DNA of 64,000 nt from Candidatus Falkowbacteria bacterium RIFOXYD12_FULL_34_57 (GTDB taxonomy: Bacteria; Patescibacteriota; Patescibacteriia; Patescibacteriales; UBA12075), in contig MFGN01000005.1 of NCBI GenBank assembly GCA_001780285.1, positions 10,200-74,199 on the forward strand, in the 5' to 3' direction. The notes beneath the pieces were generated by a model that saw only the letters and a list, made by a program, of their open reading frames with translations, did not search any database and had not been told where the DNA came from. How positions within the stretch are numbered: the first letter of the stretch is position 1; every line of letters begins with the position of its first letter. This document shows, piece after piece, positions 47,129-62,301 of this stretch. Position numbers and translations under genes: made by a program.

Positions 47129-47170
47129 CTAGCACCTTCGCAAGATCTAAGGACCTTCCGAAGGTGCTAG
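47129..47170. repeat. REP-like palindrome upstream of the Y1 transposase gene
   Basis: CTAGCACCTTCG...CGAAGGTGCTAG (12-bp arms) enclosing accttcgcaagatctaaggaccttccgaaggt. Confidence 0.75.
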
Positions 47171-47193
47171 AAAAGTCGTGACATTAAAGTAAT

Positions 47194-47856
47194 ATGAAAA
47201 GACCAAAATTTCAAAATGGAAAATATTATCATATTTGTAATCGTGGAGTAGATAAACGGGAGGTTTTTATGTGTGATGAGGATTATCTTAGATTTTTAAT
47301 TAGTTTAAGATATTTTAATGATGTGAATCCGACAGGAGGACTCTATAATTACCTGCAAAGCTTTAAACTCGAAACCTTCGCAAGGTCTAAGGACCTTCCG
47401 AAGGTACCGGATAATGAACCTTTGGTAGATATTTTGTGTTATTGTTTAAATATAAATCATTTTCATTTATTATTAAAACAAAAAAAAGAAGATGGAGTTT
47501 CAAATTTTATGCAAAAGCTTAGTAATAGTTATACACAGTATTTTAATAAGAAGCATAAACGTTCAGGAGTATTATTTCAGGGAAAATTTAGAGCTTTTGA
47601 AGTAAAAAGTGAAGGAAAATTGTGGGAAACTTCTTTTTATATTAACGGTAATGCAGAAATTCATAAAATTGATAAATGTGATAAATGGCCATGGTCAAGC
47701 TGCTCGGATTATTTAAATATACGAGAAGGGGATTTATGTAGTAAAAATGAAGTTTTAAAACATTTTAAAAATATTTCAGAATATAAAGAATTATTATTTG
47801 ATTATATTCGAGAGAAAAAGGCCTGGAAAGAAGAAAGAAAAGAATTTGAAAAATAG
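47194..47856 (+). CDS. IS200-like Y1 (HUH) transposase / REP-associated tyrosine transposase-like protein
   Basis: YHICNRG, HUH motif in NINHFHLLLK, SGVLFQGKFRA, tyrosine region SFYINGNAEIHK. Flanked by REP-like hairpins. Confidence 0.7.
   Translation: MKRPKFQNGKYYHICNRGVDKREVFMCDEDYLRFLISLRYFNDVNPTGGLYNYLQSFKLETFARSKDLPKVPDNEPLVDILCYCLNINHFHLLLKQKKEDGVSNFMQKLSNSYTQYFNKKHKRSGVLFQGKFRAFEVKSEGKLWETSFYINGNAEIHKIDKCDKWPWSSCSDYLNIREGDLCSKNEVLKHFKNISEYKELLFDYIREKKAWKEERKEFEK
47375..47407. repeat. REP-like unit inside the transposase CDS (in frame, 33 nt)
   Basis: accttcgcaaggtctaaggaccttccgaaggta differs by 1 nt over 32 nt from the upstream copy. Encodes TFARSKDLPKV. Confidence 0.8.
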
Positions 47857-47857
47857 T

Positions 47858-47882
47858 TTAAGGACCTTCCGAAGGTCCTTAA
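47858..47882. repeat. REP-like hairpin just after the transposase stop
   Basis: TTAAGGACCTT-ccg-AAGGTCCTTAA, 11-bp perfect stem. Shares taaggaccttccgaaggt with the other two copies. Confidence 0.8.
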
Positions 47883-48015: not shown

Positions 48016-49098
48016 ATGTTTAAAAAGTTTATATCATTTTTAAAGTATAACAACCTGACGGTTTTCATTGTTTTGGTTGTTTTTTTGCTTACTTCAGGAG
48101 TTTTTGCGCAGACTGAAGCTGGACAGGAGTTTATCGGCGCAAAAGAAATACGTACCGAAGGGGTAGATAATACTCTTCTCTTGGAAGCTGATTTGGAAAA
48201 AATGGATATGGATTATAAAATAGAAAAAATTGAAAGCGATGATAAATATTATTATGTTACCTACACTTATTTGGATTTAATCAAGAAAGATAATGCTTGG
48301 CAATACGGAATTCAGGAAAATGTGCGCAAGGTATCTCAAAAGGCAAAAGTTGATTTGGGAAAATATTTGGCTCAGGAATTGCGCGAAGAATACGAAAGAC
48401 GCCTTTCTGATTTAAAGAAAGAACAGGAAAAAGAGCGTGCCGGCGGAGAAAGTATTAGAACAGAGGTGGAGGAATATACGGGAGTAATCGGACAGGCTCT
48501 GGATGTGGTCGGACGGGTATTTACCGGGTATAAAGCGGTAAAGGTAAGAAAAGTGCCCGCGCCCAACGTACCGCCGACGATATTGGCGCAGAGAGAAGTG
48601 AAAAACGGAGCAGAAGATATAGGCAGCGCGGATAATTTGACTGATGTATATGAAGATTATATTGCCAGCAAAGACCCTGATCATGATGATGTTTTCGGAA
48701 TAATAGATAACTGCCCCAATGATTATAACCCGGCGCAGCTTGATGGTGACGATGACGGAATTGGGGATGTTTGTGATCACGAGCCTGAAAGTCAAAAGTC
48801 GAATGTCGAGAGTGAAGAAGGAACAGGTACCTCTACCTTAGATTTCCTTGAGGGGAGTACTCCGGAGGTAAATGATGAAGATCCAGATCAAACGTTAAAT
48901 AGCAATGATGACGGTAACACCCCCCCCGCTAACGCGGACCCCTCTCAAGAGGGGAATGTAGAAGGGGGTGACGCGGATACTTCTCAAGTGGGGAGTGTAG
49001 ATGATGGAACAAGTTCCGAAGATAGTGGTTTTGGCGCTGAAGAGACTGTAATAACAGAAGAACCGGATGTGGTAATCTTTGAGATAGAAAATCAATAA
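48016..49098 (+). CDS. Secreted protein with thrombospondin-type-3-like calcium-binding repeats
   Basis: Signal peptide. DPDHDDVFGIIDNCPNDYNPAQLDGDDDGIGDVCD. Contains one in-frame copy of the ~125-nt palindromic element. Confidence 0.65.
   Translation: MFKKFISFLKYNNLTVFIVLVVFLLTSGVFAQTEAGQEFIGAKEIRTEGVDNTLLLEADLEKMDMDYKIEKIESDDKYYYVTYTYLDLIKKDNAWQYGIQENVRKVSQKAKVDLGKYLAQELREEYERRLSDLKKEQEKERAGGESIRTEVEEYTGVIGQALDVVGRVFTGYKAVKVRKVPAPNVPPTILAQREVKNGAEDIGSADNLTDVYEDYIASKDPDHDDVFGIIDNCPNDYNPAQLDGDDDGIGDVCDHEPESQKSNVESEEGTGTSTLDFLEGSTPEVNDEDPDQTLNSNDDGNTPPANADPSQEGNVEGGDADTSQVGSVDDGTSSEDSGFGAEETVITEEPDVVIFEIENQ
48844..48954. repeat. ~125-nt palindromic element, copy E1 (in frame in a CDS)
   Basis: ttccttgaggggagtac...acaccccccc...cccctctcaagagggg, translated FLEGSTPEVNDEDPDQTLNSNDDGNTPPANADPSQEG. 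Confidence 0.85.
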
Positions 49099-49114
49099 TT
49101 ATATTTTATAAAAT

Positions 49115-49243
49115 CTCCCCTTGAGAGGAGTACCGCGGAGCGGGGAGGTGTGTAAGACGGTAGATGTCTAGATTAAGCGTTGAGTATCTTAGATCACGGT
49201 CGCACACCCCGTCTGCTTCGCAGACACCCCTCTCAAGAGGGGG
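49115..49243. repeat. ~125-nt palindromic element, copy E2 (intergenic, contains stops)
   Basis: ctccccttgagaggagtaccgcggagcggggaggtgtg...cgcacaccccgtctgcttcgcagacacccctctcaagaggggg. Confidence 0.85.
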
Positions 49244-49271
49244 TTTTAAAAAGATAATTGATTATTAAAAT

Positions 49272-49991
49272 ATGTTTAAACAAACCGTCAATTTAAAAGA
49301 TAAAATGAACAGAGCGTCAAATAGTGATGCTCGTTTTCAACGCGCGGCAGAAGCGCCAAAAACTATTTTCAAAAAGAAAAAGCTTGCGCGTAAAGTTTTG
49401 CAAACTCCGGAGCTTGCGCGGAACAGGCCGCCCGCCGCCAAGGTTATGGAAGGCAAGCATGATATTGACGAACTTTTTGATGCTGATAGGGAAGAAAAAA
49501 ATTCCAGCTTTGCCAATGCAAATATAAAAAGAGATCTGCATAAAATTGATCGTCCGGTTTTGCGGGAACAACAAGAAGGTGATAATATTTATAAAAAAAT
49601 TTCACTTATTTTGTTTATTCTGCTTATCGGTCTTTTTGCTTATTTTTTATTTTTGACGGATAAAAATAAAAGGAATACAGCAGAAGAAATAATTGTCCCA
49701 GCTTGGTACGCGGTAAAGCTTGTTACCGGGGAGATTTATTACGGCGAGATCGGGGATACAGGCGCTGATCCGGTGGTGGTAGAGAAGGTTTATTATGATT
49801 ATGACCAGTTAAACGGCAAGGATGTGTCGGGAGGAGAGGGAGAGACGGGTAATTTGCGCCTGGTAAAGCGCGGCAAAGAGACTCATGGTCCGGAAGGAAC
49901 CATGAATATCGTCCGGTCGCAAGTTCTTTTTATGGAGCCGCTGAAGGAGGAGTCCAAGGTGCTGAAGGCGATTCTAAATTATGAAAAGTAA
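49272..49991 (+). CDS. Hypothetical single-pass membrane protein
   Basis: Long ORF with a central TM helix (ISLILFILLIGLFAYFLFL). No family recognised. Confidence 0.55.
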   Translation: MFKQTVNLKDKMNRASNSDARFQRAAEAPKTIFKKKKLARKVLQTPELARNRPPAAKVMEGKHDIDELFDADREEKNSSFANANIKRDLHKIDRPVLREQQEGDNIYKKISLILFILLIGLFAYFLFLTDKNKRNTAEEIIVPAWYAVKLVTGEIYYGEIGDTGADPVVVEKVYYDYDQLNGKDVSGGEGETGNLRLVKRGKETHGPEGTMNIVRSQVLFMEPLKEESKVLKAILNYEK

Positions 49992-50047
49992 ATTGAAAAT
50001 TGATCATTGATCATTTTAAATTTTTTAAAAAAAGAAAAAATAAATTT

Positions 50048-51418
50048 ATGTATAAAGTGAATAAATTAAGTAATGGAATAAATCTGATTACAGTTCCCAT
50101 GCAAGGCACCAGCACCGCTACTGTTTTGGTGATGGTGGGTACCGGATCTAAATATGAAAATAAAGATAATAACGGCATATCTCATTTTTTGGAGCATATG
50201 TTCTTTAAAGGCACTAAAAAAAGGCCGGATACCATGGCGATATCCGGAGAACTGGACGGGATGGGAGTGGATTTCAATGCTTTTACCGGTAAAGAATATA
50301 CCGGCTATTGGATTAAATCCAGCCGGGAAAAGTTATCAAAATCATTGGATATTTTGAGCGATATGCTTTGCAACTCCAAAATGTCCGCCGCGGAAATCAA
50401 TAGGGAGAAAGGAGTGATCATTGAAGAGCTTAATATGTATCTGGATAATCCGATGATTTTTGTCGATGAGATATTCGAGCAGTGCTTATACGGCGATACT
50501 CCGGCCGGATGGGATACGATCGGCACTAGAAAAAATATTTCAGGATTCAAGCGCAAGGATTTTACGGATTACCTGAACGGCCAGTATGGCGCGAATAATA
50601 TTACAATCGTGGTTGCCGGTGATATTCCTGGCGGGATAAGGATGAAAAAAATTGCCGGTGAATATTTCCAGAATCAGATTTTAAGAAGGCGCGGTAAAAA
50701 TTTCAAGGAAAAAGAAAAGGTCGCAGAGAATCAAAAAAAACCGAGTTTTAAAATAGAATATAAGAAAACCGATCAGGCTCATCTGTCCCTGGGGGTGCGC
50801 ACCATCGGTTATGCCCATCCGGATCGGGTAATACATAAAATCATCGCCTTGATACTGGGCGGATCAATGAGTTCCCGCCTATTTATTAATCTGCGCGAGC
50901 GGCAGGGGCTCGCTTATTATGTGCGTACAGACAGCGAAAATTATACGGACAGCGGATATATGGCAACCAAGGCCGGAGTGCCGGTAAACCAAGCAGAAAA
51001 AGCTATTCAGATAATTTTAAATGAGTATAAAAAGTTAAAGAATATTAAAGTAAGTAATATAGAATTAAAAAGAACTAAGGATATGATCCGCGGGAAGCTG
51101 GCAATACAGCTGGAATCATCAGATGCGCAGGCAGATTGGTATGCGAGGCAGGCGGTGCTCGGCGTTGCGCTTGAAAGAGTAAAAATAAAAGGATACAAGA
51201 GACCCTCTAAATTCAAAATTCCCTCCAATTCGGCGGGCAGGCAAAATTCAAAATTCAGCTTAGTTACCCCAGAGGAGTATTTGGAAAAAATTGATAAAGT
51301 GACAGATGAGGATATTCAAAGAGTGGCGCGGGAGATATTTGTGTCGGAGAGGCTGAATTTGGCAGTGATTGGACCGTTTAGGAATTTTCGATTTCCGATT
51401 TCCGATTTCCGATTTTAA
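50048..51418 (+). CDS. M16-family (pitrilysin/insulinase-like) zinc peptidase
   Basis: HFLEHMFFKGT (HxxEH zinc motif) and a conserved downstream E in VIIEELNMY. ATG 50048 preferred. The C-terminal part carries the 48-nt element (51209-51256) and a heptamer-encoded tail FRNFRFPISDFRF. Confidence 0.8.
   Translation: MYKVNKLSNGINLITVPMQGTSTATVLVMVGTGSKYENKDNNGISHFLEHMFFKGTKKRPDTMAISGELDGMGVDFNAFTGKEYTGYWIKSSREKLSKSLDILSDMLCNSKMSAAEINREKGVIIEELNMYLDNPMIFVDEIFEQCLYGDTPAGWDTIGTRKNISGFKRKDFTDYLNGQYGANNITIVVAGDIPGGIRMKKIAGEYFQNQILRRRGKNFKEKEKVAENQKKPSFKIEYKKTDQAHLSLGVRTIGYAHPDRVIHKIIALILGGSMSSRLFINLRERQGLAYYVRTDSENYTDSGYMATKAGVPVNQAEKAIQIILNEYKKLKNIKVSNIELKRTKDMIRGKLAIQLESSDAQADWYARQAVLGVALERVKIKGYKRPSKFKIPSNSAGRQNSKFSLVTPEEYLEKIDKVTDEDIQRVAREIFVSERLNLAVIGPFRNFRFPISDFRF
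51209..51256 (+). repeat. 48-nt element, copy 2, inside the M16 peptidase CDS
   Basis: Identical to 4117-4164 but translated in a different frame (KFKIPSNSAGRQNSKF versus KFKIQNSLQFGGQAKFKI). Confidence 0.9.
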
Positions 51419-51434
51419 TAATAATTATAAATTT

Positions 51435-51803
51435 ATGAATAAATTTGATTTATAGGATAGGATTAAAAAGTTTGCTTTATAGAATAATTAAATTAGTTGA
51501 AGCGTTGCCCAACACAATCGCTGGTAGAAATATTGGTAATCAAATATTTCGTTCAGGAACATCTGTAGCATCAAATTATAGAGCTAGTTGTAGGGCTAGA
51601 AGTAAAGTAGAATTTATAGCTAAGTTAGGGATTGTAGAAGAAGAAGCTGATGAAACAGTATTTTGGTTAGAAATAATTATTGAAAGTAAATTAATAAATA
51701 TTAAATTATTAAATTATTAAAACCATTATTAAAAGAAGCTAATGAAATAACAGCAATTATAGTAAGTTCAAAAAAATCAGCAAAGAGAAATAAAACAAAA
51801 TAA
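51435..51803 (+). pseudogene. Decayed four-helix-bundle (23S rRNA IVS-type) protein gene
   Basis: Family-like segments occupy three frames: MNKFDL-TAG-DRIKKFAL (frame of 51435); YRIIKLVEALPNTIAGRNIGNQIFRSGTSVASNYRASCRARSKVEFIAKLGIVEEEADETVFWLEII (51445-51720 ORF); KPLLKEANEITAIIVSSKKSAKRNKTK (from 51720). Confidence 0.6.
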
Positions 51804-51838
51804 TTCGACATTCGGAAATCGAAAATTTACATGTCCCC

Positions 51839-54800
51839 ATGCTAAATAGAAAATTTTATAAAATTTTGATCATTTTTTGTCTGGTCTTCATGATCGGTCT
51901 TTTGGCGTATATTTATTTTTTTGATAATTCCATCCCCACTATTGCCGAGGAGCTGGATACCGGAGAAATTTCCAAGAGAAAGGCATTGGAGGATTTGACA
52001 TCTATACCGGTGAGGGATTTGGTGGAGGAAGAAGATAGTTTTCGGGTTGTTGATGAAAAGGATAATATTGGAGTTGAAATAATATATAATTCTCACTCTT
52101 CAAATCTCTCCTATCAAGGGGAGTACCCCGAAGGGGGGAGGGGTGTAAACGGTGAAGGTCAGAATGAAACATTAAATAGCGCTGATGACGGTCACACACC
52201 CCGCCCTAACGGGCACCCCTCTCAAGAGGGGATTTCAGATGATGGTGATGTTTTTCAAATAGATTTTTATAAGGATTATTCAAAGGGAATTGAGGTGGAT
52301 CTTGGAGAGGGTAGATCGTTTTTGATGAAGGATGTTAGTAGTGGTGACTTTAAAGTATCATCTTTGTCATCCGCCCCATTAAATTCTCCTCTTGAGAGGA
52401 GTACTGCGGAGCAGGGAGGTGTGTTAAACCGTGAAGATTCAAGTGATAAGTTAAATAGCAACGGTGACGGCAACACACCCCACCCTTCGGGCACCCCTCT
52501 CGAAAGGGGATTTGTGAAGTACGAGAGCAAGGATGAGCGGAAGAAGATTTATTATGGGTATCAGAAGGATAGCGCTACCGGAGAACGTAAGCTTAAGAAA
52601 TGGATAATATATGAAGAACCTGAAGTTTCTTCTAGTCAAAAGTCAAAAGTTCATAAAGTCGAAAGTGTGGGATACGAATATGAAGAGTATGTTTTTGAAA
52701 ACGCCAAACTTCATAAAAATGAAGATGGCGATGTGGAGGTCTTTTATTGGGGCGACAAAGAAAAGCAGAACGAGTTAACTATGGCGGAAGTGGACCAGAG
52801 CCTGTTGGCGAGAGCACAAAGAGTGCTTGCCCGCGATATGGGCGAAGACTTCATGAAAAACGGAGAGCCGGACTTAATCATCCCGAAACCATTTTACTAT
52901 GACAAAGACAATAATCTTACATATTTAGATTGGCAAATATCCGAAGATGGGCATACTTTGATTTTGGAATTCAGAGTAGAGGAAAATAAATACCCGATAG
53001 CTCTTGATCCGACTCTGGAATTTACTGCGCCGGGTATTCCGGAGGCATCTGATGTTATAACTGGAGAGAAGACAAGCAATGCTTTTGGATCATCCTTGTC
53101 TGTTGGCGATTTAAATAATGACGGCAAGAATGATTTGGTTGTTGGTGCTGGGAGCCATAATTCTTATCGAGGCCGTGTTTATATTTTTTATCAAGACGGA
53201 GGATTGGGAGATAAAGCTAATATGGCAGATGTAATAATAGATGGGGAAAATTCAAGTGATAGGTTTGGGTCTCATTTGGCGATAGGAGATTTGAATGCGA
53301 ATGGGAAAAACGATCTGATTGTTGACGCATATTATTATAATTCTAGTCAAGGCAGAGTTTATATATTTTATAACGATGGTGCATATCCTAATACGGCCGG
53401 GTTAGCGGATGAAATAATAACCGGAGAAGCTGGTATTGGTTATTTTGGAAACTCTCTTGTGATTGGTGATTTCAATTCAAATGGTAAAATAGACCTAGTA
53501 ATTGGTGCTTATGGTTATAACTCTAGCCAAGGCAGAGCTTACATATTTTATAATGATGGTATATATACAAATTTAGCTGCTTCAGCTGATGAAATCATAA
53601 CAGGGGAAGCTTCAAGTAATTTTGGAATAGAATTTACAGTAGGAGATTTAAATGTTGACGGAAAGGATGATTTGGTGATTGGAGCTTATGGATATGATGC
53701 TTCAGATGATGAAGGAAGAGTATACATATTTTATAATGATGGGACAGGGGTATACGTTGATACAGCTGCGACGGCAGATGAAATAATAACCGGAGAAAAT
53801 TTAAGTTTTTTTGGCTATTCTTTAGCTACAGGTGATTTGGATGCAGATGGGGATACAGATTTAGTGGTTGGTGGTTACAAATATGGTATTTTTGATGGTC
53901 GAGTATATATATTTTATAATAATGGGACAGGAGTATACGTTGATACAGCTGCAACCGCTGATGAAATAATTACAGGAGAAGATTCTGCAGATCGTTTTGG
54001 ATTTTTTTTAACCGTAGATGACCTTAATATGGACGGAAAAGATGACTTAATTGCCGGTGCTTATTTATATGACATTACAAGTAATGAGGGTCGAGTTTAT
54101 GTTTATTATAATGATGGGTATTATACCGCCACTTCAACACTTGCTGATGTAATTATTACGGGTGAAGGAACAGATAGTTCTTTTGGTTTTTCTTTTTCTA
54201 CCGGCGACTTAAACTCCGACGGTAAAACAGATTTAGTGGTCGGGGCTCAAGGCTACAACTCTAGTCAGGGCCGCGTCTATATTTTTTATTCCCAAAACGG
54301 GCAGGTTAATTTGAATAAGTCGATTGTGGGAGAGAGCACGAGTGATTATTTCGGCAATGCTATGACTAGCGGAGATTTTGATGCGGACGGGGATATTGAT
54401 TTGGCAGTGGGTGCTTATGAATATAACACTGGTCAGGGTCGGGTTTATATTTTCTATAATGATTATGATTATGGCGATCATGCCTCCACAGCTGATGAAA
54501 TAATTACAGGAGAAACATCAAATTCTTTTGGAAATTCTTTGGTAGCTGGAGATTTGAACGCAGATGGAAAAACAGATTTGGCTGTAGGTGCAAATTGGTC
54601 AACTCAGTGTAGTGTTTATATTTTTTATAACGACGGTAATTATACAAGCTTAGCGAGTACGGCAGATGAAATCATAACAGGAGAAGCTTCAAGTCAATTT
54701 GGTACATCAATGAGTGTGGGTGATTTGAATTCAGATGGAAAAGAAGATTTGGTAGTTGGAGCTGTTAATTACAGTTCATATAGAGGTAGGTCTTATATTT

Positions 54801-57800
54801 TTTATAATGACGGTTCATATGCTGCTTCTGCTGCTTCTGCCGATGAAATCATAACAGGCGAAGCTTCCAGTCAATTTGGTAATTCTCTAGATGTTGGTGA
54901 TTTGAATTCAGATGGAAAAGAAGATTTGGTTGTTGGGGCTTTTATGTATAACAGTTTTCAGGGTCGAATCTATATTTTTTATAATGATGGTACGGGTATA
55001 TATACATATGGTGCAACTACATCAAATGTAACTATCACAGGTTCTGGTGCAAATTTTGGAGAATCTTTGGTTATCGGAGATATGAATTCTGATGATAAAA
55101 CTGATTTGGTCGTTGGAGCCACTTTTTACGGCTCAACAAATGGCCGAGCGTATATTTTTTATAATGACGGTTCATATGCCGCTTCTGCCGCTTCTGCCGA
55201 TGAAATCATAACAGGCGAAGCTTCAAGCCAATTTGGTACATCAATGAGTGTGGGTGATTTAAATTCAGATGGTAAGACAGATTTGATTGTTGGCGCTAAA
55301 TCGTTTAGTTCGTTTACAGGTAGAACTTATATTTTTTACAACGACGGCCAATATCCATTAAACGCCACATCGGCCGACATTATGATAACTGGAGAAAATA
55401 ATGGTGATTATTTTGGCATTGCCATGATTGTTGACGATTTTACAAGTGATGGGAAGGATGATTTATTGGTGGGAGCGTATCAATATAATAATGATACCGG
55501 CAAGATATATTTCTACGAAACCCGTGATAATTATTCATGGGAACTGCAGCCTCAACTCACAAACGACTTCCGCATCTTAAACCACGGCGGTGCAGAGTTG
55601 AAGATTACGGGGGAGGGTGGTGGTGCTCATTTTGGATATGCTTCTGCTATTGGAGATCTAAATGCAGATGGCAAGAATGATTTAGTTATATCAGCTTATT
55701 CACTTTCTAAAGTATATATTTTTTATAATGATGGTTCTTATGCTAATGATGCTGCTTCTGCTGATAAAATAATTATAGGAGATGGCGATAATTTTGGGTA
55801 TCATTTAGCAATAGGTGATTTAAACTCTGATGGTAATGATGATTTGGTGGTGGGAGATTATTATTATGATATGTCCGGTCAATGTAAAGTATATATATTT
55901 TATAATGATGGTGCTTATGTTAACGATGCTGCTTCTGCAGATAAAATAATAACCGGTGATTCTTGGAGTTTTTTTGGTTCATATATATTAATTAGTGATT
56001 TGGATGCAGATGGTGATAATGATTTGGCTGTAAATGCCTGGGGATATAGTTCAAGTCGGGGTAGAGTTTATATATTTTATAATGATGGATCATATCCAGC
56101 AACTGCTAATTCTGCTGATGAAATTATAACGGGTGAAAACGTGGGAAATAAATTTGGAAGAATCTTGGTAAGCGGAGATTTGGATGCTGATGGTGATGAT
56201 GACTTAATAGCGGGAGCTTATGAATATGATCTTGGAGCAAGCACTAATGAAGGAAGAGTTTATATATTTTATAATGACGGGTCATACCCGACTGTTGCTA
56301 CAGGCGCAGATGAAATTATTACCGGTGTAGCGGGGAGTGGTTTTGGCTATTCTTTATCTGTTGGAAATTATAACTTAACAGGAACTAGTACAGAAGATTT
56401 AGTGGTTGGTGCTCCAAGTTATGATTTGGATTTAGGAACTAATACCAACGAAGGAAGGATATATATTTTTTATAATGACGAAACAGGAGTTTATCCTTAT
56501 GGAGCGACTTCTTCCGATATTACTATTACCGGAGAACAAGGCGGATTCTTTGGGGGTACCAGTTTTGTGAATGGTATAGTGAGTGGGGATATAAATAATG
56601 ATAGTCGAACAGATATAATAATAAGTAGTATTGGTTATAACTCTAGTCAGGGTTGCGTATATATATTTTATAATGATAGTGTCTATCCTTGGGGAGCTAC
56701 TAGCGCAGATATTATTTTGACAGGTGAAACAATCGGTTCATATTATGGCTCATCGCTTACTACTGGCGACTTTAACAACGACGGTAAAGACGATCTGGCG
56801 GTGGGTGCTTATGGTTATAATTCGAATCAAGGGCGGGTTTATTTGTATACTTTTAATGATACTGTGATCAGCGGGGAGGGTGCGAATAATAGTTTCGGGA
56901 ATTCTTTAGCTAGCGGAGATTTTAATGGGGATGGGAAGGGGGATTTGGTTGTTGGGGCTTCTGGGTATAACTCTAGTCAAGGCAGAATTTATATTTTTTA
57001 TAATGATAGTGTGATGACGAATTCGGCGGGGGCCGCTGATGTGGTTATTTCAGGAGAAGCCTCTAGTTTATTTGGACACTTATTGGAAACAGGTGATTTG
57101 AATGCAGATGGTAAAACGGATTTGGTTGTTGGGGCTTGGTTGTATAACTCAATTCAAGGCAGAGTTTATGTTTTTTATGGCGGTGAATCATATCCATCAT
57201 CCGCTGCTTCTGCAGATGAGATAATTACGGGTGAATCTGCTTCCGAGCAGTTTGGGTATTCTATTGCCGTTGATGATTTAAATTCTGATGGTAAGGATGA
57301 TTTAATAGTTGGCGCTTGGCAATATGGCGCGCTTGATAATGGTCGGGTTTATATTTTTTACAATGATGGATTATACCCTACTTCTGCCGCTTCTGCCGAT
57401 GTAAAAATCACCGGAACAAGCTTCTTTGATTATTTTGGATTATTGTTGAAGACAGGAGACCTGAACGCAGATGGGAAAATAGATTTGCTTGTCGCTCGAA
57501 CGGATTCAGCAAATATAATATATATATTCTACAACGATGGAACATACCCAGCCTCTTCTGCTTCTGCAGATCAAATAGTACTGGGGGAGCCCTCCGGAAG
57601 ATTTGGCTCATCTGTAGTTATCGGAGATATTAATGCAAACGGAAAAGAAGATTTAGTTATTAGTAATAGTTATTATAATTCTAACTTAGGTAGAATATAT
57701 ATTTTTTATAACGATGGCACAGGAGAATATCCTTATGGCGCTACAAGCTCTGATGTTACTATAACAGGGTCATTTTTGAGCGAGCAGTTTGGTATTTCAT

Positions 57801-58159
57801 TGCAAAAAGGTGATTTAAATTCAGACGGTAAAACAGATTTGATTGTTGGCGCCAGAGCTTATAATTCCAACCAAGGTCGAACATACGTTTTTTATAATGA
57901 CGGTTCATATCCAGATTTATCAAGTGGAGCCGATATAAAATTAACCGGAGAAAATACCGGAGATTATTTTGGAGCTTCAATTTTAACTGAAGATATGAAT
58001 TTAGATGGTATAAATGATTTGATCGTTGGCGCGTATGGGTATAATTCTAGTCAAGGGCGAGTTTATATTTATACGAATGAGACGAGGGCGGTGGATGGGT
58101 TTAAGAAGGGGGAGATAAGGGGGAATGCTAGTTTTAAGGGAGACGTAATTATACGGTAA
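51839..58159 (+). CDS. Giant FG-GAP (integrin-alpha-like) repeat surface protein (2106 aa)
   Basis: N-terminal TM. About 30 repeats of FG-x-S-[LM]-x-x-GD[LF]N-x-DG-x-x-DL[VI]VGA ... GR[VA]YIFYND. The N-terminal region carries two in-frame copies of the ~125-nt element. Confidence 0.85.
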   Translation: MLNRKFYKILIIFCLVFMIGLLAYIYFFDNSIPTIAEELDTGEISKRKALEDLTSIPVRDLVEEEDSFRVVDEKDNIGVEIIYNSHSSNLSYQGEYPEGGRGVNGEGQNETLNSADDGHTPRPNGHPSQEGISDDGDVFQIDFYKDYSKGIEVDLGEGRSFLMKDVSSGDFKVSSLSSAPLNSPLERSTAEQGGVLNREDSSDKLNSNGDGNTPHPSGTPLERGFVKYESKDERKKIYYGYQKDSATGERKLKKWIIYEEPEVSSSQKSKVHKVESVGYEYEEYVFENAKLHKNEDGDVEVFYWGDKEKQNELTMAEVDQSLLARAQRVLARDMGEDFMKNGEPDLIIPKPFYYDKDNNLTYLDWQISEDGHTLILEFRVEENKYPIALDPTLEFTAPGIPEASDVITGEKTSNAFGSSLSVGDLNNDGKNDLVVGAGSHNSYRGRVYIFYQDGGLGDKANMADVIIDGENSSDRFGSHLAIGDLNANGKNDLIVDAYYYNSSQGRVYIFYNDGAYPNTAGLADEIITGEAGIGYFGNSLVIGDFNSNGKIDLVIGAYGYNSSQGRAYIFYNDGIYTNLAASADEIITGEASSNFGIEFTVGDLNVDGKDDLVIGAYGYDASDDEGRVYIFYNDGTGVYVDTAATADEIITGENLSFFGYSLATGDLDADGDTDLVVGGYKYGIFDGRVYIFYNNGTGVYVDTAATADEIITGEDSADRFGFFLTVDDLNMDGKDDLIAGAYLYDITSNEGRVYVYYNDGYYTATSTLADVIITGEGTDSSFGFSFSTGDLNSDGKTDLVVGAQGYNSSQGRVYIFYSQNGQVNLNKSIVGESTSDYFGNAMTSGDFDADGDIDLAVGAYEYNTGQGRVYIFYNDYDYGDHASTADEIITGETSNSFGNSLVAGDLNADGKTDLAVGANWSTQCSVYIFYNDGNYTSLASTADEIITGEASSQFGTSMSVGDLNSDGKEDLVVGAVNYSSYRGRSYIFYNDGSYAASAASADEIITGEASSQFGNSLDVGDLNSDGKEDLVVGAFMYNSFQGRIYIFYNDGTGIYTYGATTSNVTITGSGANFGESLVIGDMNSDDKTDLVVGATFYGSTNGRAYIFYNDGSYAASAASADEIITGEASSQFGTSMSVGDLNSDGKTDLIVGAKSFSSFTGRTYIFYNDGQYPLNATSADIMITGENNGDYFGIAMIVDDFTSDGKDDLLVGAYQYNNDTGKIYFYETRDNYSWELQPQLTNDFRILNHGGAELKITGEGGGAHFGYASAIGDLNADGKNDLVISAYSLSKVYIFYNDGSYANDAASADKIIIGDGDNFGYHLAIGDLNSDGNDDLVVGDYYYDMSGQCKVYIFYNDGAYVNDAASADKIITGDSWSFFGSYILISDLDADGDNDLAVNAWGYSSSRGRVYIFYNDGSYPATANSADEIITGENVGNKFGRILVSGDLDADGDDDLIAGAYEYDLGASTNEGRVYIFYNDGSYPTVATGADEIITGVAGSGFGYSLSVGNYNLTGTSTEDLVVGAPSYDLDLGTNTNEGRIYIFYNDETGVYPYGATSSDITITGEQGGFFGGTSFVNGIVSGDINNDSRTDIIISSIGYNSSQGCVYIFYNDSVYPWGATSADIILTGETIGSYYGSSLTTGDFNNDGKDDLAVGAYGYNSNQGRVYLYTFNDTVISGEGANNSFGNSLASGDFNGDGKGDLVVGASGYNSSQGRIYIFYNDSVMTNSAGAADVVISGEASSLFGHLLETGDLNADGKTDLVVGAWLYNSIQGRVYVFYGGESYPSSAASADEIITGESASEQFGYSIAVDDLNSDGKDDLIVGAWQYGALDNGRVYIFYNDGLYPTSAASADVKITGTSFFDYFGLLLKTGDLNADGKIDLLVARTDSANIIYIFYNDGTYPASSASADQIVLGEPSGRFGSSVVIGDINANGKEDLVISNSYYNSNLGRIYIFYNDGTGEYPYGATSSDVTITGSFLSEQFGISLQKGDLNSDGKTDLIVGARAYNSNQGRTYVFYNDGSYPDLSSGADIKLTGENTGDYFGASILTEDMNLDGINDLIVGAYGYNSSQGRVYIYTNETRAVDGFKKGEIRGNASFKGDVIIR
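52108..52231. repeat. ~125-nt palindromic element, copy E3 (in frame in a CDS)
   Basis: ctcctatcaaggggagtaccccgaaggggggaggggtg...cacacaccccgccctaacgggcacccctctcaagagggg. Confidence 0.85.
52386..52509. repeat. ~125-nt palindromic element, copy E4 (in frame in a CDS)
   Basis: ctcctcttgagaggagtactgcggagcagggaggtgtg...caacacaccccacccttcgggcacccctctcgaaagggg. Confidence 0.85.
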
Positions 58160-58273
58160 GGATACAAATTAAAATTGTTTATAATTTATTATTTGAGATT
58201 TTTAGTTTGTTTGTTACTTGTATCTTTATATCTTGTTTCTTAATTGATATATATAAAAAGGAAAAAAATAAAA

Positions 58274-58631
58274 ATGAATAACTATGCGTTTATTGATAGC
58301 CAGAATTTGAATTTGGGTATCCAAAGGATAGGATGGCATTTAGATTATAGAAGATTTAGAGTATATTTAAAATAAAAATACCATGTAAATATGGCATATA
58401 TGTTTATTGGCTATGTTGAGGGAAATTCTAGAATATATCAATCATTACAAGAAGCAGGATTTATTGTGATTTTTATTGTTTAGTAGAACATTTAGTTGGT
58501 AAAAATAAATTATTTTCTTTGTTAGCTCCTGATAGTAAAAGGTTTTCATCGTTATTTAGAAAATTTATGAAGAATATTAGGTTTATGAATAATTTAAAGA
58601 AAAAATTGGAATATAAAAAAAAGAGGCATTA
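58274..58631 (+). pseudogene. NYN-domain (LabA-like) protein gene remnant
   Basis: MNNYAFIDSQNLNLGIQRIGWHLDYRRFRVYLK-TAA(58373-58375)-KYHVNMAYMFIGYVEGNSRIYQSLQEAGFIVIF, then a break. A C-terminal-like piece (LLAPDSKRFSSLFRKFMKNIRFMNNLKKKLEYKKK) follows in another frame. The central part is missing. Confidence 0.5.
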
Positions 58632-58935
58632 ACCTTCGGACGAAACCTTAGGTGTAACCTCTTATCGTAATTATATTATAATTATAGCATAATTATATAT
58701 ATAATGTCTCAAGGGGTATAAAATCCAAAAGGCATCGGAGTAGGAACGTATCACTACTCGTAGCCTTTTATCGTGATTAGTTATATTATAACAAGAAATA
58801 AAAATGTTAAGGGGAAATAGAAAAAAGAAGAAAAAAGATTTACGATTTAGGATTTACGATTTAAGAAGGATGTTTTATATTAGTTTTTTTAAATTGTAAA
58901 TCTTACATCTTAAATCCATAATTTGAAAATTATAT

Positions 58936-61900
58936 ATGAAAAAGAAATACAATGCACAACAAAAGGAAGCTATTGAACATGATGACGGGACGGCTTTGAT
59001 CGTGGCCGGAGCGGGAACGGGCAAAACGACAGTGCTGATCGGGCGCTTGCAGCATTTAATTGAAAAAAAGCTGGCCGGTACGGATGAAATATTATTATTG
59101 ACTTTTACGGAGAAGGCCGCCGGCGAGATGTATGATCGCGCCGTGGAAATACTTCCTTACGGTTATGTTGATCTGTGGATTAATACTTTTCATGGATTCT
59201 GCGAACGCCTTTTGCGCGAACATGCGCTGGATATCGGACTGGATCCTTCGTTTAAACTTGTCAATGATACTGAACAATGGATTTTGATAAAAAAGAATCT
59301 GGATAAGTTTAATTTGGATTATTACCGGCCCTTGGGCAATCCCAATAAATTCATATTTGAGTTGGTCAAGCATTTTTCACGCCTGAAGGATGAATACATT
59401 GAACCGAAGGAGTATTTACAATTTGTTGAAAATTTAATACAGGGTGGAGATCAAATGTTAAGTGGAAGACAAATTACTAGTCATAGGTCTATAAAGTTGA
59501 AAGTTGAAAGTAAGAATGTCATTCTGAATGAAGCAAAGCGTAATGAAGAATCTCGTGAAGTAAAAGTTAAAGATAATAGCACGGGATCCTTCTCCGCCCA
59601 GTTGGCGGATCAGGATGACATGAGCAGCCAAGAACTTTCTCGTTTAGAAGAATTGGCAAATGCTTATCATGCTTATAACAAATTATTACTTGATAATGGA
59701 TATCTGGATTTTGGCGATCTGATCAATTATTGTATTAAGTTATTTCAAGAACGACCAAACATATTAAAATATTATCAGGAAAAGTTTAAATATATTATGG
59801 TGGATGAGTTTCAGGATACTAACTGGTCACAGTATGAGCTACTAAAGCAGCTAGTTAAAAGTCATCCGCCCGAGGCGGATCAATCAAAAAACAACAAAGA
59901 GTTGTTGATTGAAAAGTCCATAAAGTCAAAAGTAAACAAGAAAAAAATCGAAAATCGAAAATCGAAAATCGAAAATTCGAACTTGATGGTCGTTGGGGAT
60001 GATGATCAGGCTATTTATAAATTTCGGGGGGCATCTCTTTCTAATATTATGCAATTCAAAGAAGATTATCCGGACGCCAAAGAGATTGTGCTTATGAAAA
60101 ATTACCGTTCCGGGCAGAATATTCTGGATAAGGCTTATAATTTTATCAAGCATAATAATCCCAACAGGCTGGAAGTCAAATTAAATATCGATAAGCAGAT
60201 AAAATCCCAGATTAAAGAAAAGGGTAGTGTAGAACATATGGTTTTTAGTCAAAAGAGCGAAGAATCTGTGTGGGTAGCAGAGCAGATTATGAATATGAGA
60301 GAAAATAATCCGGAATTAAAATGGTCGGATTTTGCCATATTGGTACGGGCCAATAACACGGCGCAGGAATTTGTGGATGAGTTAAAGAGAAAAAATATTC
60401 CATGCCTGTTTTATTCTATGCGCGGACTTTATTATAAGCCGATTATTATGGATGTACTGGCTTATTTCAAGCTTTTGGATAATTATCACGAATCCAGCGC
60501 CCTTTTCCGCGTATTGAATATGGAAGCATTCAAAGTGGGGCATGCGGATATTATAAATATTAATAAATTTGCCCGCAAAAAGGTGTGGTCGCTTTTTGAA
60601 GCCCTGCAGCATATCAATGCCATACCGGATGTGAGCGCGGAAGCCGTATCAAATATTAATAAATTATTGGATTTAATTCGCAAACATTCTCTTTCGGCGC
60701 AAAACCAGAAACCTTCGCAAGTCTTTGCTAAATTTGTGTGGGATGCCGAACTCAACAAAAAAGATTTTGACGCGGAACAGGAGTATTATAGCTATCTTAA
60801 TCAATTTTATAAGAAAATCAAATCATTTGAAGAAAATGAGGCTGATGCGCGCGTAAAAGATTTTATGGAGTATATGGAAATGGAGCTGGAATCTGGCGAA
60901 ACCGGCGCACTTCGTTTAGATTTTGAAGATGATGATGTGGTCAGGGTGATGACCGTGCACGGCTCCAAGGGGCTTGAATTTGATACTATATTCTTAGTCG
61001 ATTTGGTAGATAAAAGATTTCCCACTGTTAATCGCAGTGAAAAAATATCCATTCCCGACGCGCTGGTGCGGGAAAAATTGCCGGAAGAAGGGGACGCGCA
61101 TATTGAAGAAGAGCGCCGTTTGTTTTACGTAGCTTTGACCCGAGCCAAGAATAATTTATTTTTGACCAGCGCGCGGGATTACGGCGGAGCGCGGGATAAG
61201 AAGCCATCACCGTTTATTTCCGAAGCCCTTTTAAATTCTCCCCTTGAGGGGAGTACCCCGGAGGGGGGAGGGGTGTTACGGTCACCAAAAGAAAAAACGT
61301 TGAATAGGGATAGTGATGATAACACACTCCCCGCTACCGCGGACCCCTCTCGAAAGGGGAATCATAAAAATAAATACGAATTAATGCGTGATTTGGAATT
61401 GATTAATCAACCTGTTGTAAAAAAAGAGTGTACATATAAAATCCCGAAAAATTTTTCTTTTTCGCAAATTGAGGCTTTTTCCAATTGCCCCTTGCAATAT
61501 AAATTTAATTTTATTTTAAAAATTCCGGTTTTAACAAAGGACGCTTTTATTTACGGCCGGGTAATGCATAATACTTTAAAAGATTTTTTAGCGCCCTTGG
61601 AGTCTACTGCCTCTATTCAACCCGATCTTTTTGCTTCTGTTGAAAATAAAAATGTCATTCTGAATGAAGCGAAGCGAAATGAAGAATCTCGCGAAAGTCG
61701 GAATGGCGACGGGATTCTTCGCTGCGCTCAGAATGACAATTATAAGAATAAGTTGGCCCAAAAGAATTTAAAAGAAGCATATGAGAAGCACTGGCAGAAT
61801 GACGGATATGAATCAAAAGAAACCAGGGAGAAATACAAAAAGAAAGGGTGGCGGGAATTAAAAATGTTTTATGAATATTTGGAGAAAGAGGGATGGCCCG

Positions 61901-62301
61901 AGGTATTATTCTTAGAAAAAGTATTTTCGTTTAAATTGGGAGATTATTTTTTTCGAGGGGCGATCGATCGTGTAGACAGGCTTCCTGATGGCAGCGTAGA
62001 AGTAATGGATTATAAAACCGGCAATGCTAAAGAAAAATTAACATATCAACAAAAAAGGCAATTGATTTTATATAAAATAGTTTTAGAAGAGGCGTTTGGA
62101 TTAAAAGTATCTAAGTTGTCGTTTTATTATTTGGAAAATGGTACAAAAGCCTCTTTTAAGTCTACTGTAAAACAAGAAGAGAAGTTAAAAGAGGAGATTA
62201 ATGAGGTGATAGAAGAGATAAAGAAGTGTGAGTTTTTGCCAAAACCGTCGATGCTTTGCTCGTTCTGCGATTTTAATAGTATTTGCGAGTTTAGACAATA
62301 G
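58936..62301 (+). CDS. UvrD/PcrA-like superfamily-1 helicase fused to a C-terminal PD-(D/E)XK (Cas4/AddB-type, Cys-cluster) nuclease domain
   Basis: AGAGTGKTTVL (Walker A), DEFQDTN, VGDDDQAIYKFRGA, TVHGSKGLEFD, RRLFYVALTRAK. C-terminal CPLQYKF ... GAIDRVDRL...VEVMDYKTG ... CSFCDFNSIC. Several repeat-derived in-frame insertions. Confidence 0.85.
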   Translation: MKKKYNAQQKEAIEHDDGTALIVAGAGTGKTTVLIGRLQHLIEKKLAGTDEILLLTFTEKAAGEMYDRAVEILPYGYVDLWINTFHGFCERLLREHALDIGLDPSFKLVNDTEQWILIKKNLDKFNLDYYRPLGNPNKFIFELVKHFSRLKDEYIEPKEYLQFVENLIQGGDQMLSGRQITSHRSIKLKVESKNVILNEAKRNEESREVKVKDNSTGSFSAQLADQDDMSSQELSRLEELANAYHAYNKLLLDNGYLDFGDLINYCIKLFQERPNILKYYQEKFKYIMVDEFQDTNWSQYELLKQLVKSHPPEADQSKNNKELLIEKSIKSKVNKKKIENRKSKIENSNLMVVGDDDQAIYKFRGASLSNIMQFKEDYPDAKEIVLMKNYRSGQNILDKAYNFIKHNNPNRLEVKLNIDKQIKSQIKEKGSVEHMVFSQKSEESVWVAEQIMNMRENNPELKWSDFAILVRANNTAQEFVDELKRKNIPCLFYSMRGLYYKPIIMDVLAYFKLLDNYHESSALFRVLNMEAFKVGHADIININKFARKKVWSLFEALQHINAIPDVSAEAVSNINKLLDLIRKHSLSAQNQKPSQVFAKFVWDAELNKKDFDAEQEYYSYLNQFYKKIKSFEENEADARVKDFMEYMEMELESGETGALRLDFEDDDVVRVMTVHGSKGLEFDTIFLVDLVDKRFPTVNRSEKISIPDALVREKLPEEGDAHIEEERRLFYVALTRAKNNLFLTSARDYGGARDKKPSPFISEALLNSPLEGSTPEGGGVLRSPKEKTLNRDSDDNTLPATADPSRKGNHKNKYELMRDLELINQPVVKKECTYKIPKNFSFSQIEAFSNCPLQYKFNFILKIPVLTKDAFIYGRVMHNTLKDFLAPLESTASIQPDLFASVENKNVILNEAKRNEESRESRNGDGILRCAQNDNYKNKLAQKNLKEAYEKHWQNDGYESKETREKYKKKGWRELKMFYEYLEKEGWPEVLFLEKVFSFKLGDYFFRGAIDRVDRLPDGSVEVMDYKTGNAKEKLTYQQKRQLILYKIVLEEAFGLKVSKLSFYYLENGTKASFKSTVKQEEKLKEEINEVIEEIKKCEFLPKPSMLCSFCDFNSICEFRQ
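59944..59971 (+). repeat. (AAAATCG)x4 heptanucleotide repeat inside the helicase CDS
   Basis: Four perfect units plus one variant, translated KIENRKSKIENS. Lies between helicase motifs II and III. Confidence 0.9.
61238..61359. repeat. ~125-nt palindromic element, copy E5 (in frame in the helicase CDS)
   Basis: ctccccttgaggggagtaccccggaggggggaggggtg...aacacactccccgctaccgcggacccctctcgaaagggg. Confidence 0.85.

Follow-up and report, generated by a model that had tools for sequence, protein, structure and literature searches.

Palindromic repeats inserted in frame within protein genes of a Candidatus Falkowbacteria genome belong to a family found in several phyla

Introduction

Candidatus Falkowbacteria bacterium RIFOXYD12_FULL_34_57, a member of the Candidate Phyla Radiation (CPR, or Patescibacteria), carries a family of short palindromic repeats, four copies of which lie within three protein-coding genes in the stretch of DNA analysed here (hereafter the window: 64,000 nt of contig MFGN01000005.1, positions 10,200 to 74,199). 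An initial annotation, made from the sequence alone, described five copies, named E1 to E5, and proposed that they are a mobile repeat family comparable to the Rickettsia palindromic elements (RPE). Our analyses support this proposal through homology at the nucleotide level, the absence of an insertion from orthologous genes and the existence of intergenic relatives. RPE are palindromic repeats of ~100–150 nt that occur in unrelated genes, where they are translated and tolerated, as well as between genes, and no transposase is known for them (Ogata et al. 2000, 2002, as summarised in PMC10969869). What is new is that a CPR bacterium holds selfish DNA in frame in the manner of RPE, and that this DNA belongs to a multi-phylum family with a covarying architecture of five helices. 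We consider it likely that the family is a non-autonomous selfish DNA repeat, similar to a REPIN (a doublet of repetitive extragenic palindromes, REPs) or a MITE (miniature inverted-repeat transposable element), which has ends recognised as hairpins and behaves like RPE within genes of this lineage.

Five copies in the window

Scans with a covariance model and with a DNA hidden Markov model, the latter built from 32 family members, found exactly five copies in the 64 kb, all on the + strand between 48.8 and 61.4 kb and at the coordinates first described. The copies score 38–93 bits on the forward strand compared to 36–62 on the reverse. The 5' motif CTCCYCTTGAGRGGAGTAC has five forward-strand sites in the window against 0.00 expected, and the 3' end motif CCCCTCTCRARAGGGG has five sites against 0.05 expected. 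GC content is 52–57% in the copies and 39% in the window. Pairwise identity among the five is only 59–75% (mean column identity of their alignment 78%), so that they are old and diverged. Compared with shuffled sequences, E2 to E5 fold strongly (z −3.3 to −5.5), while E1 does not stand out (z −0.6).

The most intact copy is E2 (49115..49243; 93 bits), which folds at −62.7 kcal/mol (z −5.5) and is also the sole intergenic one, lying 16 nt past the stop codon of a TSP3-repeat protein gene and 28 nt ahead of the next start. Its parts are P1 (49115-49130), TAC (49131-49133), P2 (49133-49143), P3a (49144-49153), P3b (49203-49210), P4 (49211-49225) and P5 (49227-49242). E1 (48844..48954; 38 bits) is a decayed copy within the same TSP3 gene (48016-49098), where it supplies residues 274-316 of the acidic C-terminal tail; the 5' arm of its P1 is degenerate and a 12-nt deletion has taken out P3a (GGGAGGTGTG). 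Both E3 (52108..52231) and E4 (52386..52509) are in frame in the gene for a giant FG-GAP protein (51839-58159), as residues 88-134 and 181-227 respectively, upstream of the FG-GAP repeats in Pfam coordinates. E5 (61238..61359) is in frame in the gene for a UvrD/PcrA-type helicase-nuclease (58936-62301), its residues 766-811 falling in the linker between UvrD_C, which ends at residue 746, and PDDEXK_1, which starts at 840 (Pfam). The mapping thus places E1 and E3 to E5 outside domains, in keeping with the suggestion that insertions are tolerated in linkers and similar regions.

Reading frames and the nature of the genic segments

The genic copies had been thought to share a single element frame. 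This is true for their centre only, and does not hold for the 5' third of E3 or the 3' end of E4. The first ~40 nt of E3 are read in a frame other than that of E4 and E5 (LSYQGEYPEGGRGV versus SPLERSTAEQGGV), until a 1-nt indel within GGTGTGT brings back the register. In E4 it is the 3' end that departs from the frame of E1, E3 and E5 (TPLERGF versus DPSQEGN). Such changes of frame within copies, through single-nucleotide indels, argue that the homology lies at the nucleotide level and not at the protein level. The intergenic copy does contain stop codons, as first reported, with two to three in each + frame of E2; its TAA is also present in E3 (GTGTAAAC versus GTGTAAGAC), where the host gene reads across it in another frame. 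Roughly one frame in three across the family lacks stops altogether. Because open frames come so readily to elements this rich in GC, those of genic copies are survivorship of insertions and carry no signal.

Sequence comparison supports the view that the genic segments are inserted repeat DNA, because they are homologous to one another across frame shifts, to E2 with its stop codons and to intergenic copies elsewhere, and because E5 is missing in orthologues. A conserved protein domain or linker motif of ancient origin would explain why the central ~25 residues are alike among the four genic copies, yet it is refuted, and we assign it practically no probability, given the differing frames within copies, the stops in E2, the absence of the segment from ~105 helicase orthologues and the outcome of protein searches. 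A profile of the four genic peptides, run against 1.84 billion representative proteins, found five matches. Strain variants of the FG-GAP and TSP3 proteins encoded in the window account for three; a fourth (P0244) is weak and concerns a repetitive, apparently unrelated protein; and the last (P0245) comes from another CPR contig, L030, where an ORF (open reading frame) of 297 aa (1977-2870) owes most of its length to the translation of palindromic repeats from three or more families, including two decayed in-frame copies of the present one (2556-2666 and 2687-2805). A profile and word search of 5.8 billion proteins gave no match, the query being too short.

Insertion differences and recombination among copies

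The best named relatives of the window's helicase come from Candidatus Falkowbacteria, Parcubacteria and Patescibacteria, at identities of up to 59%. When ~105 helicase orthologues were compared, as the initial annotation had advised, all were found to lack E5, and the linker between helicase and nuclease is 38–68 aa long in them compared to 76 aa here. The closest orthologue, P0002 (71% identity, contig L011), also lacks E5 but carries an independent family copy at another site, co-oriented and in frame, ~560 residues upstream (L011 1931-2065). Hence copies have come to lie at differing places of orthologous genes in this CPR lineage. Several orthologous CPR helicases are 1350–1430 aa long and bear Hint or intein domains (PF01079, PF14890), such homologues being P0006, P0013, P0026, P0033, P0056, P0074, P0077, P0086 and P0119; these host an intein, where the window's helicase hosts palindromic repeat insertions instead.

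A second kind of difference is seen in the FG-GAP gene. P0241 is a public variant of 1480 aa from a near-identical strain, and its N-terminus is reproduced exactly by a 170-nt deletion that joins the 3' arm of P5 in E3 to the 3' arm of P1 in E4 (window ~52225-52396). The crossover lies in a 5-nt stretch common to both, AGAGG, and causes a frameshift, and the gene call of P0241 restarts at an ATG inside E3. This shows that family copies can recombine with each other.

A five-helix architecture

Elements of the family are ~105–140 nt long and comprise five helices, P1 to P5. The left half consists of (A)TT, P1 (CTCCTC-TTGA-GAGGAG), TAC, the variable hairpin P2 and P3a (GG-A-GGTGTGT); after a variable middle of 12–55 nt, the right half consists of P3b (ACACACCCC), the variable hairpin P4, (C)A, P5 (CCCCTC-TCAA-GAGGGG) and AA(T). 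P1-P2-P3a and P3b-P4-P5 are homologous to each other in inverted orientation, and we confirmed that each end is a hairpin, that the ends are mutual inverted repeats and that GGGAGGTGTG can pair with CACACCCC, all as first described. The compensatory pair noted between E4 and E5 in the 5' hairpin is also real, the position being T-A in 26 family members, C-G in four and A-T in one.

P1, P3 and P5 are near-invariant in sequence across the family, whereas P2 and P4 vary greatly in both sequence and length (3–8 bp) and nonetheless retain a hairpin. P2 forms one in 33 of 35 copies from more than 15 distinct 5' arms, with a mean best stem of 4.16 against 2.47 ± 0.10 when shuffled, and P4 does so in 34 of 35 from ~25 distinct 5' arms (4.56 against 2.85 ± 0.11). 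Covariation was measured on a MAFFT alignment that had not been fitted to the structure, with 500 shuffles and with controls in which pairing partners were slid. Paired cells amounted to 91.9%, compared to 86.8 ± 0.6 in shuffles and 47–65% with slid partners; nine pairs had changed on both sides (4.2 in shuffles); and the covariation score of 0.156, against 0.068, was reached by none of the 500 shuffles. Three of the four pairs of P2 and all four of P4 covary.

Most copies show no complementarity between P2 and P4, so that the element is no plain long hairpin or palindrome but a five-helix structure. The second pair of the end hairpins is conserved as T-A in P1 and as C-G in P5, making each end hairpin perfect, while a long helix between P1 and P5 would hold a wobble U.G and an A.C mismatch at this position. 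This difference favours local end hairpins, or at least left and right ends that can be told apart. Fold energies of the two strands are about equal, the reverse being slightly better in 22 of 32 copies.

Relatives in other genomes

Two pattern scans recovered 10 loci among species-representative genomes and a further 18 in metagenomes. The genome loci, by their titles, include Chitinophaga and Flavobacteriales metagenome-assembled genomes (MAGs), a Magasanikbacteria MAG, a Rhodohalobacter contig (263 kb) and a Francisella chromosome (1.72 Mb). With extra copies found by the models, ~35 elements are known outside this lineage, carried by CPR, Bacteroidota, Rhodohalobacter and Francisella assemblies and by unassigned metagenome contigs. 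They are intergenic without exception, mostly 4–60 nt past a stop codon, and stand in either orientation to the upstream gene (11 co-oriented, 6 opposed); genic copies were found only in the window, L011 and L030. The idea of a family in this lineage is therefore right as to its presence there but too narrow, since the family spans several phyla and is purely intergenic elsewhere. Our results show an interspersed, multi-copy family that is normally intergenic.

Mosaic relatives occur at two loci (L013 14065-14184; L019 5900-6000, minus strand), in which the TAC and P1's 3' arm have given way to another hairpin (TCCGCCAGCTGGCGGA); at L019 the mosaic directly adjoins a full copy. This is an organisation like that of bacterial interspersed mosaic elements (BIMEs). 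No match to E2 was found by blastn in plasmid and phage collections, and a pattern scan of IMG/VR for the element returned 0. Rfam has no match at gathering score in the window, and a scan of five loci at E<=1 placed no family on the element. A full-text literature search found no paper that prints the motifs and, beyond one MITE review, nothing relevant on palindromic, MITE or in-frame elements of CPR.

Likeness to known systems

The family resembles RPE in being palindromic, ~100–150 nt long, dispersed in multiple copies and in frame in unrelated translated genes, with intergenic copies also; insertions of the RPE type number four copies in three genes of the window, one in P0002 and two in P0245. 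It differs by occurring in another phylum (CPR/Patescibacteria) with no known sequence relation, by its purely intergenic members in other phyla, by its five-helix layout with covarying inner hairpins and by a frame that is not uniform along the copies. By analogy, the family works like RPE, although its membership of the described Rickettsia RPE families is unlikely.

A REPIN is a doublet of inverted REP hairpins; in REPs the hairpin adjoins a conserved GTAG tetranucleotide, and REPs are normally lineage-specific. REPs, REPINs and BIMEs are associated with RAYT (TnpA_REP) Y1 transposases (Nunvar 2010; Bertels & Rainey 2011; Ton-Hoang 2012; Messing 2012). The present family shares with them two inverted halves, each with a short hairpin that may likewise adjoin a conserved tetranucleotide (GTAC here, GTAG in REPs), a mostly extragenic position near gene 3' ends, mosaic variants (L013, L019) and a RAYT-like gene in the same window. 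The two-unit design of a REPIN is visible in the inverted homologous halves and in long-range minimum-free-energy folds (27 of 32 copies). Here, however, each half holds two hairpins and a conserved GGAGGTGTGT motif; (G)TAC comes after P1 throughout the copies but NCAC, not GTAC or GTAG, comes before P5; the family is near-identical across phyla; and the window's RAYT-like Y1 gene (47194-47856), tested locally, is flanked by another palindrome. The inverted two-half design, extragenic habit and mosaics resemble REPINs and BIMEs, and the likeness falls short of establishing membership of that family.

Bacterial MITEs (Correia of Neisseria, ERIC, BOX, RUP and cyanobacterial elements) are small, non-coding, multi-copy repeats with terminal inverted repeats and occasional in-frame fusions to ORFs (PMC10969869). 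All these features recur in the present family, although it shows no parent insertion sequence (IS) and no clear target duplication, and its inner hairpins are conserved by compensatory change. Palindrome-associated transposable elements (PATEs), derived from IS200/IS605, have ends recognised via subterminal hairpins on single-stranded DNA, differing left and right ends and no target duplication. The likenesses are the recognition of ends through subterminal hairpins, as proposed here, the differing ends and the lack of a clear target duplication; the ends of PATEs are not mutual inverted repeats, unlike those described here, and no conserved 5' target tetranucleotide was identified for the present family. 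Integron attC sites are imperfect palindromes bounded by R''/R' boxes (RYYYAAC ... GTTRRRY). They were considered and rejected: every copy has (A)TTCTCCTC...GAGGGGAA(T) as its ends, with no R''/R' boxes and no GTTRRRY.

A candidate mobilisation mechanism

Copies would spread by transposition in trans, the enzyme reading the conserved end hairpins P1 and P5 together with the subterminal P3 motif, while P2 and P4 would need only to form hairpins. The mechanism may act on single-stranded DNA and be of the HUH/Y1 type (RAYT or IS200/IS605-like). Genic copies would persist only where the host frame is stop-free and the insert, a hydrophilic stretch of ~40–45 residues with many P, G, D, E, N, S and T, falls in a linker or tail; they would then decay, as E1 and the L030 copies may illustrate, in the manner of Rickettsia palindromic elements. 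HUH/Y1 mobilisation is our favoured guess and the most likely mechanism, preferred to a DDE enzyme because pairing has been kept while sequence varies and because there is no convincing target duplication.

The window contains a gene for a Y1 (IS200-like), RAYT-like transposase (47194-47856, + strand, 220 aa; Pfam PF01797, E 1e-7), 1 kb upstream of the copies. The protein matches NCBIfam REP_Tyr_transpos weakly, below cutoff, and some homologues are named RayT by JGI. Palindromes with a AAGGACCTTCCGAAGGT core lie on both sides of the gene (47131-47172 and 47858-47882), and a third copy of this type is in frame within the Y1 ORF (47374-47410), encoding the peptide ETFARSKDLPKVP. A RAYT-like gene with palindromes of its own shows that HUH/REP biology exists in this genome. 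In nearly all of the ~100 CPR homologues with an extractable loop, the loop at this position is a hypervariable peptide, and many of these peptides look palindrome-derived, e.g. ELSSEASELSS, KASDALAKASDAF and RGSTSIMEVEPL. This suggests that each Y1 gene carries its own cognate hairpin in the variable loop. The window's Y1 protein had no match among the ORFs of loci L001-L029.

Weighing the alternatives

Several observations weigh against a selfish repeat moved in this way. No transposase was linked to the element in the window or the fetched loci, and no gene family recurs beside copies in an all-against-all blastp of ORFs from loci L001-L029 (~190 kb). The palindromes flanking the window's Y1 gene are of the AAGGACCTTCCGAAGGT type and not P1/P5, and no Y1 homologue among those read has the P1/P5 hairpin in its variable loop. 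Identities of 59–75% among copies give no sign of recent movement. For 27 of 32 copies the minimum-free-energy fold is a cloverleaf in which P1 and P5 pair as a long stem, and the near-invariance of P1, P3 and P5 across phyla would fit a host-level function equally well. Several of the carriers in other phyla are MAGs with unchecked binning, the Francisella chromosome and the Rhodohalobacter contig being the most secure.

The flanks bear on whether the element is a conventional MITE, that is, a deletion derivative of an insertion sequence moved as double-stranded DNA by a DDE transposase, with terminal inverted repeats of ~20 bp (ATTCTCCTCTTGAGAGGAGTAC and its complement) and a 2-bp AT duplication. 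In 27 of 28 copies the base before the element (−1) is T and the base after it (+1) is A, AT is found on both sides in ~20 of 28, which could be the duplication that a DDE enzyme makes and is a further point against our explanation, and the insertion sites are A/T-rich; the P1/P5 inverted repeats and a size below 150 nt agree with this as well. AT is, however, self-complementary and may simply extend the inverted repeat by two bases, and no duplication longer than AT exists among the flanks of the 28 copies. Moreover, binding of double-stranded DNA does not require that P2 and P4 keep their pairing through many sequences, and no parent IS with P1/P5 ends was found in the window or in ~190 kb of loci, so that we regard a conventional MITE as unlikely.

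Host function has also to be considered, in that the repeat might primarily be a structured RNA or a regulatory element (for instance a terminator acting in both directions, a stabiliser of mRNA 3' ends or a small RNA) of which genic copies would be accidents. The strong conservation of P1, P3 and P5 across phyla, the covariation of P2 and P4 and the position of most intergenic copies just beyond a stop codon would all be expected, and in a terminator scan only the minus-strand P1 of E2, followed by ATTTTAT, is terminator-like. Yet the + strand P5 of E2 fails the same scan, Rfam offers no match, copies occur in both orientations to the upstream gene, both strands fold about equally, and the element varies in presence at orthologous sites and decays inside ORFs; we judge this very unlikely. 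Doubtful in our view is a previously undescribed class of structure-constrained elements that spreads horizontally, defined by its five-helix or cloverleaf form and by a near-invariant core common to CPR, Bacteroidota, Balneolota and Francisella, and either recognised by one conserved enzyme (e.g. a new Y1/HUH or recombinase lineage) or acting as a functional RNA. Were this true, hairpins maintained by compensatory change even within genes would be selected and not merely inherited from source copies that differed. A non-autonomous REPIN- or MITE-like repeat remains our preferred explanation.

Other repeats in the window

A second palindromic family (GTCATTCTGAATGAAGCGAAG...CTTCGCTGCGCTCAGAATGAC) lies inside the helicase gene, in frame twice (59516-59640 and 61651-61741), where it encodes the repeated peptide NVILNEAKRNEESRE and ILRCAQNDN; it is also translated in P0245 (L030 2063-2150). 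At least three palindromic repeat families are thus translated within genes of the window. Further upstream, at 11484-46784, are very large repetitive ORFs (5328, 1664 and 1728 aa). This region has long direct repeats, both internal and between genes, at 65–94% identity (families D8-D16), and a duplicated segment of ~200 nt at 37626, 38351 and 46593. These ORFs look like paralogous surface-protein genes in recombination.

Significance

A core that is near-identical across distant phyla, combined with covarying inner hairpins, is unusual for REPs and MITEs, and points to a conserved and transferable recognition machinery. Elements of this kind lead to gene calls that are inflated and fragmented and to spurious 'hypothetical' peptides, and they bring about deletions, as at the junction of E3 and E4. 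The small genomes of CPR bacteria are usually thought to be streamlined, and yet translated palindromic repeats of several families are found within 64 kb of this one. The phenomenon of selfish DNA inside protein genes, described in Rickettsia, is hereby extended to the CPR/Patescibacteria.

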